Part shown: piece by piece, positions 3,405 through 26,783 of the stretch
How positions within the stretch are numbered: position 1 is the stretch's first letter
Layout: each line of letters begins with the position of its first letter
Made by a program: the position numbers and the translations under genes
Notes under the pieces: generated by a model
What the model saw: only the letters and a program-made list of their open reading frames with translations
Told to the model about the DNA's origin: nothing
Database searches by the model: none
Source: an uncultured bacterium
GTDB lineage: Bacteria; Margulisbacteria; WOR-1; CAVSGV01
Assembly (NCBI GenBank): GCA_963699255.1
Contig: OY969425.1
Coordinates: 690,001-722,000 of the forward strand
Direction: 5' to 3'
DNA: 32,000 nucleotides

Positions 3405-4366
3405 ATGGAAAGTTTTTCAGCTAGCTCCAGTACGGACCTGTCTATGGTCTTTTTCACTCTCACCGCTCTGGCAAAATCGGTCGCCACTATCTTCCCGTTC
3501 TGCATCCCGACAAGCTTGTTCCTGCTGCCTTTGAGGAGCAGCTCGACGGCCGCAGATCCGAGCTTGCAGGCAAGCGCCCTTGATTCTGCGGACGGGGACC
3601 CGCCTCTTTGAATGTGCCCGAGCACCGTTACCCGGACGTCCACTTTAAGTTTCTTTAAAATGTACTCCCCGAGAACATGCCCCCTGCACACGCCCTCCGC
3701 GGTCACGATAATGCTGCTGTGCTTTCCCCTGTCCATGCCTTCCCTCAGCCTTTTGCAGACCCTGTCAAAATCGCATTTTACTTCCGGCACCAGTATTATC
3801 TCCGCTCCCGCTCCAAGCCCCACTTCAAGAGCGATGAAGCCGTTGTCCCGGCCCATCACCTCGATGATGAATATCCTCTCGTGGGACGCCGCGGTGTCGC
3901 GGATCTTGTCTATCGCGTCAAGGGCCGTATTGACCGCCGTATCGAACCCTATCGTCGAATCAGTGCACGGAATGTCATTGTCAATGGACGCGGGAACCGC
4001 CATCGAAACGATGCCAAATTCTTTTTGAAGGTCGTACGCGCCGCCCAGAGAGCCGTTGCCGCCTATGATTATCAAAGCGTCTACATTGTGGTCCTTAAGC
4101 TGCCTTGCCGCGATCCTCCTGAAGGATTTCTTCTTGAATTCCGGGCATCGGACGGTATGAAGTATGGTTCCTCCCCTGTTCAATATACCTGAAACGGATT
4201 TAAGGTCCATAGAGTGGATATCGCCGCCGATAAGCCCCGCATATCCGCGATCTATGCCCATAACACGGAGCCCGTGAAAGATCGCCGTTCTTACGACAGC
4301 CCTTATAGCAGTGTTCATTCCGGGGGCATCTCCTCCCGGGGTAACGACGCCGATTGTTTTTATCAT
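3401..4366 (-). CDS. pfkA: 6-phosphofructokinase
   Basis: N-terminus [25 protein letters not shown] family layout ([25 protein letters not shown]). 4-nt overlaps with both neighbours. Confidence 0.9.
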
Positions 4367-5802
4367 ACAGACACCTTCCCTTCGGTAACTATCTTGATCG
4401 AATGATAGATTATATCAAGCATTCCGCTTAAATCCACGTTCGAAATGCAGAACGGAGGCATAATAACGATAATGTCCGAGAGAGGCCGTATTATCAGACC
4501 GCGCTTCCTCGCTTCCATTATCACATTGATGCCGATCTTTTCGGACACTCGGTATTCTTTCTTAGTTCTCTTATCCTTTACAAGCTCTATTCCCGCAAGG
4601 AAGCCGCACTGGCGCACGTCTCCTACATGATTAAGCTTGCGGAATCCCCTGAGCTTTTCGGCCAGCAATCTTATCTTTGGCTGCAACTTTTGCAGCGTTC
4701 TCTCTTTACTGAAAACATCTATCGACGCTATTGCCGCGGCGCACCCGAGGGGATTCCCGGTGTAGGTGTGTCCGTGATAAAAAGTCCTGTGGCTCTCCTG
4801 CGTGCCAAGGAAAGCCTTGAATATTTTTTCCGTTGTCAGGGTCGCGGCAACAGGAAGATACCCACCGGTCAGGCCCTTAGCGACGATCATTAGATCGGGC
4901 TTCACGCCTTCGTGCTCACAGGCGAACATTTTGCCGGTCCTTCCAAATCCCATCGCAACTTCATCGACTATCATCAGAATATTGTATTTCGTGCAAAGTT
5001 TTCTTATCCCCTTAAGATACCCTTTCGGATACACAAGAATTCCCGCCGCCGCCTGGACAAGCGGCTCCACTATCATCGCGGCGATCTCCTTGTGATGAGC
5101 TTTCATTATCGTTTCAACCGCTTTCAAACACTTCATCTCGCACTTCGCATCCCTGCCCGCCGAAGCCTTGGCGTAGGCGGGTCGCATCTCACATCTGTAG
5201 CAATACGGTGTCGGCGCCTTGAACGATCTGAAAAGCAGCGGTTTATACATCTTATGGAACAGGTCGATCCCCCCGACCGAAACGGACCCGATGGTGTCCC
5301 CATGATATGCGTTAACCAGAGTTAAGAACTTTGTCTTGAATTTGGGATTTTGAAATTGTTTAGGATTTCGGATTTCGGATTTCGGATTTTTTCTCTGCTG
5401 CCAATATTGGAACGCCATCTTTAACGCTATCTCGACGCCTTCCGATCCCGAATCAGAATAAAAAACCCTGGTCAACCCTTTCGGCGCAAGTTCGATGATC
5501 TTTTCGGCAAGCAAGGTTGCCGGAACATTCGATAATCCGAGCATCGTCGAATGCGCGATCTTGTCGATCTGTTTTTTTACCGCCCTGTCGATGGCCGGAT
5601 GCCTGTGGCCGTGAACATTCACCCAGAGGGAAGAAACGCCGTCGATGTACCATTTGCCGTCAATGTCCTTGATCCACGCGCCCCGGCCTTCCTCAATGAT
5701 AAGCGGCTCTTCTTTCATCCAATCCCGCATCTGAGTGAAAGGATGCCAGATATACTTATGATCAATATCTTTCAATATATTTTGTTTCATGGTTGTCTCC
5801 AA
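4363..5802 (-). CDS. bioA: Adenosylmethionine-8-amino-7-oxononanoate aminotransferase
   Basis: Class-III aminotransferase motifs (YHGDT, DEVAMGFGRTGK, HGHTYTGNP) and biotin operon context. Carries a heptamer-encoded loop insertion (NPKSEIRNPKQFQNPK). Confidence 0.9.
   Translation of the reverse strand: METTMKQNILKDIDHKYIWHPFTQMRDWMKEEPLIIEEGRGAWIKDIDGKWYIDGVSSLWVNVHGHRHPAIDRAVKKQIDKIAHSTMLGLSNVPATLLAEKIIELAPKGLTRVFYSDSGSEGVEIALKMAFQYWQQRKNPKSEIRNPKQFQNPKFKTKFLTLVNAYHGDTIGSVSVGGIDLFHKMYKPLLFRSFKAPTPYCYRCEMRPAYAKASAGRDAKCEMKCLKAVETIMKAHHKEIAAMIVEPLVQAAAGILVYPKGYLKGIRKLCTKYNILMIVDEVAMGFGRTGKMFACEHEGVKPDLMIVAKGLTGGYLPVAATLTTEKIFKAFLGTQESHRTFYHGHTYTGNPLGCAAAIASIDVFSKERTLQKLQPKIRLLAEKLRGFRKLNHVGDVRQCGFLAGIELVKDKRTKKEYRVSEKIGINVIMEARKRGLIIRPLSDIIVIMPPFCISNVDLSGMLDIIYHSIKIVTEGKVSV
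5363..5390. repeat. Tandem heptamer block GGATTTC x3 + GGATTTT (decayed units extend back to ~5336), in-frame inside bioA
   Basis: Direct reading: ggatttc ggatttc ggatttc ggatttt. On the coding strand it encodes NPKSEIRNPK. Confidence 0.9.
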
Positions 5803-8833: not shown

Positions 8834-9649
8834 ATGAAAAAACACCTGGTGATGCTCCACGGCTTCGGCTGTGACTCAAGGGTATTCTCATCGATCGGAA
8901 CGAAACTGTCAAAAGACCATGACGTCCTTATGGTGGACCTGCCCGGCCACGGCCAGACCAAGGAAAAGTTCGGCGATTTTTCTTTCTCCGCTTACACGAT
9001 ACTTCACGCGCTCGACCAATATCTGGGCGAGCCTTACTCTCTTCTCGGCTGGTCGATGGGAGGACAGATCGCGCTAGAAATGTACAAGCAAACAAAGAAG
9101 AGATGGGAGATGAGAGATGCGAGATGCGAAAAGCAAGAGTCTAAATGCAAATGCGGGCACGATCACGAACATGAACATGCGCACAGCGATATCACATCGC
9201 TCATCCTCGTTTCATCCACGCCAAAGTTCGTGGCTTCAGACGATTTCCCATTCGGAATGAACAAGGCCGTTTTCAGCAAGTTCAGAAAGGGTCTAAAAGA
9301 TCACCCTGAAAAGACAATGAACGATTTTTACAACCTTGTATTCTCTGACAACGAGGATGCGTCCTTGTTTCTATCCAGCATCCAAACCCAAACCCCATCC
9401 CAACAGACCCTTCTAGAATGCTTGAAAAGTTTCGAGCGCTTCGACGGAAGGAACATTCTTCCCGCGGTGAACGTCCCCACCCTGATAATGGCCGGCGACG
9501 GCGATGAGGTGATCGACCCGAAGGCGTCGCTTTATCTGTCGCAGGAAATAAAGAGCAGCTCATTGAAGATGTTCAGGGGCGCCGGACACGCGCCGCATCT
9601 TACAAGAGAAAAGGAAATGATCGATGAGATCTCAAAGTTCCTTGGATAA
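8834..9649 (+). CDS. Alpha/beta hydrolase, BioH-like pimeloyl-ACP methyl ester esterase, with a ~30-aa low-complexity insertion
   Basis: LHGFG oxyanion region and GWSMGG nucleophile elbow. C-terminal GAGHAPH. Sits between bioB and bioC. Insertion is KKRWEMRDARCEKQESKCKCGHDHEHEHAHSD. Confidence 0.65.
   Translation: MKKHLVMLHGFGCDSRVFSSIGTKLSKDHDVLMVDLPGHGQTKEKFGDFSFSAYTILHALDQYLGEPYSLLGWSMGGQIALEMYKQTKKRWEMRDARCEKQESKCKCGHDHEHEHAHSDITSLILVSSTPKFVASDDFPFGMNKAVFSKFRKGLKDHPEKTMNDFYNLVFSDNEDASLFLSSIQTQTPSQQTLLECLKSFERFDGRNILPAVNVPTLIMAGDGDEVIDPKASLYLSQEIKSSSLKMFRGAGHAPHLTREKEMIDEISKFLG
9100..9127. repeat. GAGATGN heptamer block x4, in-frame inside the bioH-like gene
   Basis: gagatgg gagatga gagatgc gagatgc, followed by decayed units gaaaagc aagagtc taaatgc aaatgcg. 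Confidence 0.9.
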
Positions 9650-15108: not shown

Positions 15109-15137
15109 TTGAGCGTCCACGCCAATTGCAGTATAAT
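15109..15137 (+). promoter_or_regulatory. Sigma70-like promoter of lysophospholipase-glpK
   Basis: TTGAGC (15109-15114), 17-nt spacer, TATAAT (15132-15137), then 8 nt to ATG 15146. No SD. Confidence 0.55.
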
Positions 15138-15145
15138 CACCCCGG

Positions 15146-15973
15146 ATGCTTAAATCCCAAGATGGCGTTATTTTTTACCGGGAATGGAACTGCCCTTCTC
15201 CCAAGACGGTCGTCATACTTGTCCACGGGCTTGGCGGGTACTCGGGAAGATTCTTCGAGTTCGGCCCTTACCTGGCAAAGCACGGCATGCAGGTCTATGC
15301 AATAGAGCTTAAAGGCTTCGGCGAATCCCCTTCCGTAAAAGGCCACATCGATAACTTCCAGACCTATACGAACGAACTGAAGTCCCTCGTTGTAACGGCG
15401 AAAAAACTGCATGCGGAAAAAAAGATATTCATGTTCGGCGAATCGATGGGCGGGCTCATCACGCTTGATTTCTTGATCCATCACCAGAACATGATCGACG
15501 GGGCGATCCTGATGTCCCCCGCCGTAAAAGACAAGCTGCCGATGCCCTTTGCGAAAAAACTGGAGATCTTCAGATCCGCGATGTTCGATCCGATGGCGTT
15601 CTTCCCTGCCGGCTTCTCGGCGGAGTTGTTCACGCGCGACAAAGTGATGGCAAAAAGGATAAACAACGACCCTCTCGAGGTGAGGCAGTTCACGGCAAAG
15701 TTCTTTTTCTCGATATTGAAAGCGATGATATTCGTGAGCATGAAGCCCCGCGCGATCAATCTTCCCGTCCTCATGCTGCTTGCGGGGCATGACTCGATGA
15801 TCTCTGCTGAAACCGCGGAGAGGTATTTCAAGAAAATGCCATCGAAGGACAAAGAACTGAAATGGTATCCGGAAATGTTCCACGCGCTTTATGTTGATAA
15901 GGATAGAGAGCCTGTTTTCAAGGATATTGTTGATTGGATAAATAAAAGAGCAGAGATGGGAGATGTGAGATGA
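15146..15973 (+). CDS. Alpha/beta hydrolase, lysophospholipase/monoacylglycerol lipase-like
   Basis: [16 protein letters not shown] nucleophile elbow, C-terminal FHAL. Overlaps the glpK start (ATGA). Confidence 0.8.
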
Positions 15974-15980
15974 GAGGTGT
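15953..15980. repeat. GAGATGN heptamer block x4 spanning the lipase stop and the glpK start
   Basis: gagatgg gagatgt gagatga gaggtgt. Contains the lipase TGA (15971-15973) and the glpK ATG (15970-15972). Confidence 0.9.
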
Positions 15981-17469
15981 GAAGAAATACATATTAGCTA
16001 TAGATCAAGGCACCACCGGCTCAACGATCATCATCTTCGACAAAAAAGGCGGAATAGCATCGAGAGCTTACCGAGAATTCCCTCAGATATTCCCAAAGCC
16101 AGGCTGGGTGGAGCATGACCCTGTCAAGATATGGCAGTCGGTAAAGCTGACGATAACCGACGCGCTAAAGGCCGGAAAGATCAAGGGAAGCGAGATCGCC
16201 GCGATCGGTATCACAAATCAGAGAGAAACCACGATCATATGGGACAGGAAGACAGGCAGGTCGATCTACAACGCTATCGTATGGCAATGCAGAAGGACAG
16301 CGCAGATATGCGACGCCCTGAAAAAGAAGGGTCTTGAGCCCTACGTCCAGAAAGCGACCGGGCTGAAGATAGATGCGTATTTCTCGGGAACAAAGATAAA
16401 GTGGATACTAGATAACGTCAGAGGAGCTAGAAGAGCTAGAGGAGGAAGATGTGGGGGATTGGCTTTTGGGACTGTTGATACATGGATAATATGGAATCTG
16501 ACTGATGGCAAAAGTCACGTTACCGACTATTCAAATGCTTCAAGGACGATGATTTACAACATTCGAAAGCTTGATTGGGATGAAAAGCTCCTCAAAATAC
16601 TTCGCATTCCGCGTTCTCTTCTTCCCAAGGTCGTCCCCTCTTCCGGAATTGCCGGGCGCACAAAAGGCCTAGGGGTCCTGCCGGACGGTATACCGATCGC
16701 AGGAATAGCCGGCGATCAGCAGGCTGCTTTATTCGGGCAGGGCTGCCACGAGCCCGGGGACATCAAGAACACTTACGGAACCGGCTGTTTCATGCTTGTT
16801 AACACCGGAACAAAGGCCGTTAATTCAAAGACCGGCCTTTTGACAACGATCGCATGGGGAATTGATAAGAAAGTCTTTTACGCTCTTGAAGGCTCCGTTT
16901 TCATTGCTGGCGCCGCGATCCAATGGATCCGCGACGGACTGGGTCTGATCAAGAAAGCTGCAGAGACCGAAGCTATCGCAGAGTCGGTCCCTGACACAGG
17001 CGGCGTGTATTTTGTCCCTGCTTTCGTCGGCCTTGGCGCGCCTTACTGGAACATGTACGCGCGCGGCACTATCACCGGAATAACCAGGGGCACGACCAGG
17101 GCTCATCTGGTCCGCGCGACGCTTGAGTCCCTTGCCTATCAGACAAAGGATGTACTCCTCTGCATGCAGACGGATTCGCATCTCAAGATAAGATCGATGA
17201 AAGTGGACGGTAAAGCCGCGGAGAACGGTTTCCTGATGCAGTTCCAGGCGGATATCCTGCCGGCAAAAGTGATCCGGCCAAAGATCATCGACACCACCGC
17301 GCTCGGGGCGGCGTATCTCGCAGGTCTGGGAGTTGGTTTCTGGAAAAATCGGAACGAACTAAAGAAACTCTGGAAGATCGATAAAATATTCAGTCCTAAA
17401 ATGGAGAGGACTCAAAGGAATAAGTTATATCAGGGTTGGGAAAAAGCCATATCTCAAGCTCAACGTTGA
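15970..17469 (+). CDS. glpK: Glycerol kinase
   Basis: [33 protein letters not shown], full FGGY-kinase length. Confidence 0.95.
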
Positions 17470-17487
17470 GAGCTTAGATGTTTAATT

Positions 17488-17522
17488 TCTAATCTCCAAT
17501 CTCTATTCTCTAATCTCTACAA
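17488..17522. repeat. TCTAATC heptamer block x5 between convergent glpK and DUF167
   Basis: tctaatc tccaatc tctattc tctaatc tctacaa. The minus strand encodes EIRE plus the TAG stop of DUF167. Confidence 0.85.
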
Positions 17523-26296: not shown

Positions 26297-26372
26297 GAGA
26301 TGCGAGGTGTGAGATGCGAGATGCGATAAAAACAAAAGAGATGGGATGTGCGAGATGAGAGATGCGATAAGA
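26297..26372 (+). repeat. Two adjacent GAGATGN x4 blocks upstream of, and overlapping the start of, the four-helix-bundle gene
   Basis: 26297-26324 reads gagatgc gaggtgt gagatgc gagatgc (then gataaaa). 26338-26365 reads gagatgg gatgtgc gagatga gagatgc (then gataaga). Confidence 0.9.
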
Positions 26373-26744
26373 CATTTTACCGATTTGATCGTGTGGCAAA
26401 AAGGTAATGAATTAGCCATTTTGGTATATTCCTTAACCAGCAAATTCCCCAAAAATGAACTTTTTGGACTTACAAATCAGCTCAGGAGAGCTGCCACTTC
26501 AATCCCGGCAAACATCGCCGAAGGAATGGGAAGAGGAAGTTATCCTGATAGAGCAAGATTTTATTACAATGCCAGAGGCTCGATATATGAAGTTGAAAGC
26601 TACCTCATTGTCTCTAAAGAACTGAAGCATCTTGATGTTGATAAGTTTACAAAAGCAATGGATTTATTGAACTCAACAAGAATGCTATTGAATGCTTTTA
26701 TAGCAAAGACCTTGAAAATAGGAAATGAGAGAGTATTAACCTGA
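26355..26744 (+). CDS. Four-helix-bundle protein (23S rRNA intervening-sequence protein family, TIGR02436/PF05635-like)
   Basis: DLIVWQKGNELAILVYSLTSKFPKNELFGLTNQLRRAATSIPANIAEGMGRGS...ARGSIYEVESYL matches the family pattern. Start is ATG 26355 or 26346; both lie inside a heptamer array. Confidence 0.85.
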   Translation: MRDAIRHFTDLIVWQKGNELAILVYSLTSKFPKNELFGLTNQLRRAATSIPANIAEGMGRGSYPDRARFYYNARGSIYEVESYLIVSKELKHLDVDKFTKAMDLLNSTRMLLNAFIAKTLKIGNERVLT

Positions 26745-26762
26745 GATGTATTTTCTCATCTC
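26743..26762 (+). other. Hairpin formed by a forward GAGATG unit and the first inverted CATCTC unit
   Basis: gagatg (26743-26748), 8-nt loop, catctc (26757-26762). It begins inside the TGA stop of the four-helix-bundle gene. Confidence 0.5.
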
Positions 26763-26783
26763 TGATCTCACATCTCTCATCTC
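26756..26783 (-). repeat. Inverted GAGATGN x4 block just downstream of the four-helix-bundle gene
   Basis: Plus strand reads tcatctc tgatctc acatctc tcatctc. The reverse complement is gagatga gagatgt gagatca gagatga, with the same A-rich and GAAAATA flanks. Confidence 0.9.

Follow-up and report, generated by a model that had tools for sequence, protein, structure and literature searches.

A dispersed GAGATGN heptamer repeat holds the stop, Shine–Dalgarno and start signals at a lipase–glpK junction and recurs at other gene starts

How does a tandem repeat come to hold both the end of one gene and the beginning of the next? The question is raised by a block of four GAGATGN heptamers in a 32,000-nucleotide (nt) stretch of DNA from an uncultured bacterium (the window), where the block contains the 3' end of a lipase gene and the start region of the glycerol kinase gene glpK. 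An earlier note on this DNA claimed that unrelated genes share a repeat-derived translation-initiation region and suggested that the block is a portable stop/restart or ribosome-binding module. The shared initiation region is real and recurrent. For its origin, we favour, with a probability of about 0.6, the reading that a repeat copy was added at a tight gene junction, rebuilt the stop, the Shine–Dalgarno (SD) sequence and the start, and was tolerated or exapted there, rather than being a purpose-built mobile ribosome-binding-site (RBS) module.

The heptamer block at the lipase–glpK junction

The upstream gene (15146–15973, forward strand, from the list of open reading frames (ORFs) and its translation) encodes a lysophospholipase-type α/β hydrolase (Pfam Hydrolase_4, 1.9e-57). 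The downstream gene, glpK (15970–17469, forward strand), matches Pfam FGGY_N (5.6e-79) and FGGY_C (4.6e-42). The block spans 28 bases at 15953–15980 on the forward strand and reads GAGATGG GAGATGT GAGATGA GAGGTGT, four direct units in tandem with a strict period of 7 nt. Its 5' flank is A-rich and its 3' flank is GAAGAAA, like the rest of the family. The lipase gene ends AAA AGA GCA GAG ATG GGA GAT GTG AGA TGA (RAEMGDVR*); the final six codons (EMGDVR) and the stop TGA (15971–15973, forward strand, in unit 3) all lie within the block. An SD-like sequence, GGGAGATG (15958–15965, forward strand), has GGAGAUG, which matches the extended SD GGAGGUG at six of seven positions, and its GGGAG (15958–15962) is placed 7 nt 5' of an ATG (15970–15972, forward strand). 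This ATG arises from the array and is a candidate glpK start, giving MRGVKKYIL. Together with the lipase stop, it forms an ATGA overlap (15970–15973). The stop/start overlap and the SD within the upstream ORF give the junction the layout of translational coupling. The earlier note's positions for the lipase end, GGGAG, ATG 15970 and the ATG of a four-helix-bundle gene at 26355 all hold.

The glpK frame reads ATG AGA GGT GTG AAG AAA TAC, so that a second candidate start, the GTG at 15979–15981 on the forward strand, lies in unit 4, with ATG 15970 as a new in-frame start 9 nt upstream of it. Beyond this GTG, no in-frame ATG, GTG or TTG is present up to the conserved DQGTT motif of glpK. Therefore, the glpK start and SD lie inside the block whichever codon is used.

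Comparison with relatives indicates which parts of the junction are new. The lipase–glpK adjacency is conserved across the class, and glpK is ancestral at this position. The block is absent from about 11 relatives examined at the junction, where the two genes are usually tightly coupled through ATGA, TGATG or a 2-nt gap; the relative-type junction sequence is AAGAGGAGCTAGACATG. Individual relatives read AAGAGGAGC TAG AC ATG AAA AAA TAC (L070), a TTATGA overlap (L072), a CATACATGA overlap with GGGGAGG as SD (G006), TGATG (L012), and TAA, 2 nt and ATG (L007), and in G001 a GTG start stands directly 3' of the TAA of an intervening gene. The lipases at these junctions end near ...KRS* or ...KRA*. 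A search for related loci with the lipase as query gave only distant homologues and no informative junction. The closest lipase homologues (10 tails read, up to 89% identical), mostly 269 residues long, lack EMGDVR and mostly end ...W(I/V)(N/D)K(R/H)(S/L), with P0008 having another tail, and the relatives' GlpK begins M/V-KKYIL. Since the relatives have tight native junctions without the block, the block is a lineage-specific addition, and EMGDVR* and MRG are products of the array. The earlier note's view that these terminal residues are repeat-derived is thus borne out, and the orthologue alignment that it had called for retrieved no orthologue with the same termini and no heptamer periodicity.

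In the alignment of the junctions (A1), this genome is longer by about 19–27 nt, and GTG 15979 is aligned with the ATG or GTG start of all relatives, whereas ATG 15970 is without counterpart. The earlier note had the glpK start, at ATG 15970, and its SD inside the block; their location inside the block stands, but the codon at the ancestral position is the GTG.

The host uses SD sequences. The 3' tail of its 16S rRNA is GGATCACCTCCTTTCT (16S tail CACCTCCTT), and AGGAG is found upstream of 15% of genes, against a background of 1.3%. Predicted pairing with the 16S tail is -12.8 kcal/mol for the 20 nt that precede ATG 15970, in the 6th percentile of 1011 genes, and -9.1 kcal/mol for the region before GTG 15979, in the 30th percentile. 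Relatives have AAGAGGAGC as the SD in the lipase end, and here this old SD is decayed to AAAAGAGCA.

The lipase–glpK junction is itself a hot spot for heptamer arrays. The nearest relative, L067, with a lipase 89% identical, carries a 150-nt hairpin of different heptamers at the same junction (2627–2765), with arms of AAGAGGN-type units and a predicted RNA fold of -62 kcal/mol (z = -5.9). A 21-nt AAGAGNN array in L071 is a left-arm-only version of this hairpin. The arms of the L067 hairpin look seeded from a local AAGAGGAGCTAG, and TATAAT, 7 nt and the glpK ATG follow.

We considered purely local amplification of a native junction heptamer, an idea based on the sequence AAGAGATGCGA in L069 and on the L071 and L067 arrays, which look seeded from AAGAGGAGCTAG. 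It would leave unexplained the 37 loci of this genome with a common unit and common flanks (below), and was rejected.

A consensus scan detected neither a promoter-like nor a terminator-like site in the stretch from lipase to glpK; co-transcription of the two genes is therefore probable. The same type of scan gave a promoter-like TTGAGC-17-TATAAT at 15109–15137 on the forward strand, ending 8 nt 5' of the lipase ATG; given this site, the lipase mRNA may carry a very short leader or none at all. An Rfam search of the whole window matched no family, and the block is therefore not a known leader or riboswitch.

A second array, of five GAGATTN units, lies on the reverse strand at 17483–17519 (TAATCTC... 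on the forward strand), directly 3' of the glpK stop. The gene thus has an array on either side (15953–15980 and 17483–17519), both of them specific to this genome. The second array is a weak inverted partner of the first, with a predicted RNA duplex of -30.1 kcal/mol (rank 69 of 3175 windows). The two arrays could bracket glpK and form a stem like that of an intervening sequence (IVS), acting in RNA processing, stability or sequestering of the RBS. In favour of such a stem, L067 lacks both arrays and has unrelated sequence 3' of glpK, the duplex is among the top 2.2% of windows, and bracketed cassettes exist elsewhere in the genome. However, the units differ (GAGATG and GAGATT) and the 5-bp helices are broken by mismatches. 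In addition, pairing of equal or greater strength is predicted for 68 other windows, the best being the 3' arm of the four-helix-bundle cassette (-50.9 kcal/mol), and lysS, fumA, lpd and tgt, which carry arrays at their starts, have no complementary array after the gene. We regard the stem as highly improbable.

The GAGATGN family and its copies at other genes

The genome, one 1.77-Mb contig with 47.5% G+C, abounds in period-7 arrays of several unit families. For example, a (GGATTTC)x4 array of another family lies at 5359–5389 of the window, inside the minus-strand ORF 4363–5802 or at its edge. The window contains 14 matches to GAGATGNGAGATG (two units) with at most one mismatch, compared with 0.2 expected from 100 shuffles. 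Genome-wide, there are 37 GAGATGN arrays of at least three units, compared with none in the shuffled genome, and looser criteria give 41 arrays, compared with 2 in the reversed sequence. A chance origin of the arrays is excluded by these shuffled and reversed controls.

The 37 arrays share more than their unit. A is found at -6 in 29 of them and GA at +1/+2 in 34, giving the family a layout of an A-rich 5' flank and a 3' flank of GA plus A-rich sequence. About 12 arms have a nearby inverted partner and form arm-loop-arm hairpins with loops of 6–19 nt; the rest are single arms. The glpK copy belongs to the latter: the best inverted partner within 120 nt matches at 12 of 28 positions, fewer than the mean of 13.9 expected by chance, and the copy has no terminal inverted repeats and no clear target-site duplication. 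All five family-level relatives carry the family, as do one order-level relative and one other genome; a search of the remaining 23 genomes of the class did not detect it.

Exactly four units are present in 27 of the 37 arrays. Positions 1–6 of the unit are conserved at 86–100%, whereas position 7 is free, with nil correlation between neighbouring units (0.27 observed, 0.28 expected). These features bear on the idea of a contingency locus, in which slipped-strand gain or loss of 7-nt units would switch lipase and glpK expression or fuse the two proteins. Simulated unit changes lend it something, as duplication of unit 1 or 2 yields an in-frame lipase–GlpK fusion and deletion of unit 4 removes every glpK start. 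However, a usable glpK start is left in six of eight such changes, and the units are non-identical, with an uncorrelated seventh base and a fixed array length. Accordingly, a slippage microsatellite was rejected as the main explanation, and a contingency locus appears extremely improbable. The block is not a programmed frameshift heptamer, either, as GAGATGN does not match the pattern X XXY YYZ.

The initiation region seen at glpK recurs at the four-helix-bundle gene, as the earlier note had it, at lysS, fumA, lpd and tgt, and in a relative (G002) at a TsaB-like gene whose stop and start both lie inside an array. Single-arm arrays in sense orientation end exactly at the ATG of lysS (1754325 of the genome), fumA (1179500), lpd (1173223) and tgt (1515614), and a further sense copy ends 3 nt 5' of a GTG-start gene (458711). 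At glpK, lysS, fumA, lpd and tgt, forward orientation and an end at or near the start are found together with overlap of the upstream stop. In relatives, an ATGA overlap is present at coaX/lysS in three of four and at mdh/fumA in three of four, and the radical-SAM/lpd junction has ATGA in two and GTGA in one. Here, the ancestral overlaps are replaced by 26–56 nt of heptamers, which adjoin the native ATG of lysS, fumA and lpd on its 5' side. The genes upstream of the arrays have either gained array-coded tails (EM*, EMRDARYEMRSVR*) or kept their own stop. At the lpd junction (1173190–1173230), AAATGA, the ancestral overlap sequence, is found on both sides of the array; this duplication is the sole hint of a target-site duplication that was seen.

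The tgt locus (1515500–1516800) differs in its ancestral state. Relatives have TATAAT 7–9 nt 5' of the tgt ATG, in a leaderless-like arrangement, and here about 90 nt, comprising a GC hairpin and a GAGATGN array, lie between the TATAAT position and the ATG. The tgt ORF also contains in-frame arrays of AAATCCC-type heptamers, encoding SQIQNPKSQINPKFQKPKTKNQ.

The copies at 26297–26783 of the window show another arrangement. Two GAGATGN x4 blocks (26297–26324 and 26338–26365, forward strand) precede and contain the start of the four-helix-bundle gene (26346–26744, forward strand), a member of the 23S rRNA intervening-sequence protein family PF05635 (Pfam 8e-35). The start, ATG 26355 or 26346, lies inside GAGATGG GATGTGC GAGATGA GAGATGC, and from 26355 the protein begins MRDAIRHF. 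An inverted GAGATGN x4 arm on the reverse strand (26756–26783) closes the cassette, with an arm–arm RNA duplex of -43.4 kcal/mol. The orthologue in G001 has the same array arrangement, MRDAIKHFTDLEVWQK. All 10 PF05635 genes of the genome stand between inverted heptamer arms, and the unit family differs from gene to gene; their loci (G000:C1) include 182529, 465438, 495300, 676967, 1000835 and 1541672. A shared AAAATTGCT motif lies 5' of several of these cassettes and of the G001 orthologue.

The arrays could also be binding sites for a trans-acting RNA- or DNA-binding regulator, which would make glpK, lysS, fumA, lpd, tgt and others one post-transcriptional regulon. GAG would be read every 7 nt, as in HutP-type sites, with the PF05635 protein as a candidate binder, its cassette having the same arms. 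Six conserved positions with one free position and a fixed number of four units point to a recognition array rather than to a slippage product, the arms differ in unit family between the 10 PF05635 genes, and a regulator has been proposed for the TAACTGA repeats (MacGregor 2015, PMC4679880). However, searches for homologues of HutP, TRAP and CsrA found none, the genes behind the arrays have no common functional theme, and many copies lie in ORFs or in antisense orientation. A regulon of this kind is very unlikely.

Sense copies are also found inside ORFs. A GAGATGN x4 array at 9100–9127 (forward strand) lies in frame in an ORF for a BioH-like α/β hydrolase (8834–9649), where it encodes RWEMRDARCE; the ORF stays open, and Pfam Abhydrolase_1 matches on both sides of the insert. 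The insert sits after the GWSMGG nucleophile elbow and is followed by a Cys/His-rich stretch, KCKCGHDHEHEHAH. Further sense in-frame arrays lie in this genome's ThiE, ProS, TsaD and DinB, and relatives have them in ValS and BioA (G000:C1:5041, 786384, 1153013, 1764723; G002:C8:259864; G004:C53:2452). TsaD holds both arms of a hairpin, and the in-frame arrays encode hydrophilic, RDARCEM-like peptides. Other copies of the family occur as intergenic hairpins and as antisense arrays between genes.

Regenerated signals or a dedicated cassette

In the reading that we favour, one copy of a dispersed, lineage-restricted repeat, comprising an A-rich flank, (GAGATGN)x4 and a GAAAA flank, would have been added on the sense strand exactly at the ancestrally tight lipase–glpK junction. 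The properties of the unit itself could account for its survival there. The unit resembles an extended SD (GGAGAUG for GGAGGUG) followed by AUG, and units with A or T as N include UGA. With the 7-nt period, successive units present ATG in all three frames, and TGA in those cases where N is A or T. Falling into a tight overlap, a sense array would thus end the upstream ORF and offer an SD and an ATG to the downstream gene in any phase. At the lipase–glpK junction, the displaced signals would have been rebuilt as a lipase stop (with the tail EMGDVR), a strong SD and a glpK start, the latter being either the new ATG 15970 in the ATGA overlap or the ancestral-position GTG 15979. The operon would stay translationally coupled, with the repeat tolerated or exapted.

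An antisense array (CATCTCN), in contrast, has neither stops nor starts and would part the downstream gene from its SD. Since only sense copies would rebuild the signals, a survivorship filter predicts a sense bias near starts without any dedicated function.

A positively selected translation-initiation cassette would account for many of the same observations. According to this explanation, which largely coincides with the portable module of the earlier note, sense arrays were kept or spread because a strong, frame-independent stop–SD–start sets or boosts translation of the downstream gene. The arrays do show a sense bias near starts and, for at least five housekeeping genes, end at the native ATG; the predicted SD duplex is in the top 6% for glpK and the top 8% for lysS; the old SD of the lipase end has decayed (AAGAGGAGC in relatives, AAAAGAGCA here); tgt, leaderless-like in relatives, has an array-bearing leader here; and the purH junction carries an array in three genera. 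At lpd, tgt and fumA, however, the predicted SD energies are only average (36th–46th percentile), and relatives do without arrays at the junctions that bear them here. The GAGATGN family also occurs as hairpins, in antisense orientation and in frame within ORFs. Moreover, heptamer families without SD or ATG adjoin gene boundaries as closely as GAGATGN does: 57 of 165 heptamer arrays lie within 10 nt of a gene boundary, against about 30 expected for random intergenic placement. The survivorship filter alone predicts the sense bias. We consider a selected cassette unlikely.

Some of these observations nevertheless weigh against mere tolerance and hence against the reading that we favour. The purH/ppiD-like junction (780405–780425) carries a GAGATGN array in three genera (G000, which is this genome, G001 and G002) and none in G003 and G004, the downstream starts being in different frames of the array; retention in three genera could mean that the array has been kept over the long term. 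Single-arm copies near starts number about 13 in sense and 1–3 in antisense orientation, as counted on heuristic gene calls whose start choice favours ATG-containing arrays, and this bias, together with the exact abutment to starts, could reflect positive selection or targeting. A bolder proposal combines the two: GAGATGN x4 would be a frame-independent stop–SD–start cassette, targeted to ATGA overlaps and starts, perhaps by microhomology, and selected there, setting the initiation of at least seven genes including glpK, lysS, fumA, lpd and tgt, possibly with the involvement of a trans-acting reader of GAG motifs. We find this proposal decidedly unlikely.

Survival at tight junctions by chance regeneration of stop, SD and start fits the data at least as well as a portable module does. 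A dedicated function, as the earlier note's portable module would imply, is not supported, because copies of the family also occur as hairpins, as inverted arms, in antisense orientation and in frame, because SD-free heptamer families also adjoin gene boundaries, because L067 has a different heptamer hairpin at the same junction, and because lpd, tgt and fumA have only average SD energies.

Relation to known repeats and implications

The closest published analogue is the set of TAACTGA repeats of marine Beggiatoaceae, where 169 sets of 2–6 copies were described (MacGregor 2015, PMC4679880); such repeats also occur in some Cyanobacteria and Bacteroidetes. Most sets are forward and just 5' of starts, the commonest class ending 1 nt before the start, and 13 sets overlap an upstream stop, with stops in several frames (PMC4679880). 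Some copies lie in ORFs at tolerant positions, the downstream genes have no functional theme, and the function is unknown (PMC4679880). GAGATGN arrays share with them the short 7-nt tandem form, the forward orientation at starts and the overlap with the upstream stop, and are an analogue, not a member by sequence. In contrast to TAACTGA, the GAGATGN unit has a free seventh base. TAACTGA has little SD character and its genes are mostly without SD, whereas GAGATGN is SD-like and contains ATG, and can supply both RBS and start. GAGATGN arrays occur, in addition, as hairpins and as inverted arms on either side of a PF05635 gene, and homologue names suggest a Margulisiibacteriota-like lineage for the host.

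Several other classes of element share single features with the array. The short tandemly repeated repetitive (STRR) sequences of cyanobacteria, to which the host lineage is related, are dispersed tandem heptamers, mostly intergenic and of unknown function, with several unit families per genome, as is the case here. Their units have other sequences and are largely identical within an array, whereas GAGATGN arrays are fixed at about four units with one degenerate position; STRR sequences are not known to give start codons or SD sequences. Repetitive extragenic palindromic (REP) sequences and bacterial interspersed mosaic elements (BIMEs), repeats like miniature inverted-repeat transposable elements (MITEs; Correia, ERIC, RUP) and Rickettsia palindromic elements are small, non-autonomous, and found at junctions or in frame. 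Such repeats can add residues and donate expression signals. The glpK copy differs from them in being a phased heptamer array, not a unique sequence, and in having no terminal inverted repeats.

The copy at 26297–26783, with its GAGATGN arms, PF05635 gene and inverted arm, has exactly the build of 23S rRNA IVS and IVS-like cassettes, and the inverted arms typical of these are present there. At glpK, in contrast, the arm stands alone, a partner being absent nearby, the gene that follows is glpK rather than PF05635 cargo, and the array lies in an mRNA instead of rRNA. The junction is similar to general ATGA translational coupling, with ATGA and an SD in the end of the upstream gene, as the ATGA and TGATG junctions of relatives are. 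It differs from the usual case in that the overlap, the SD and the terminal codons all come from the repeat, not from the genes' own sequence.

Heptamer arrays abutting starts have thus been described before (the TAACTGA repeats), and what is new here is an SD-like unit carrying both ATG and TGA. The case is easy to read, as the unit is SD-like, the host uses SD sequences and relatives keep the empty junctions. In three operons the repeat replaces ancestral ATGA overlaps, and at glpK a near-abutting junction; the proteins on both sides gain residues, and housekeeping genes have their start signals taken over by the repeat. It also serves as a warning for the annotation of start codons and C-termini in repeat-rich metagenome-assembled genomes. 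In addition, the family offers a testable system in which the arrays may be either neutral passengers, surviving only where the signals are rebuilt, or tuners of translation.

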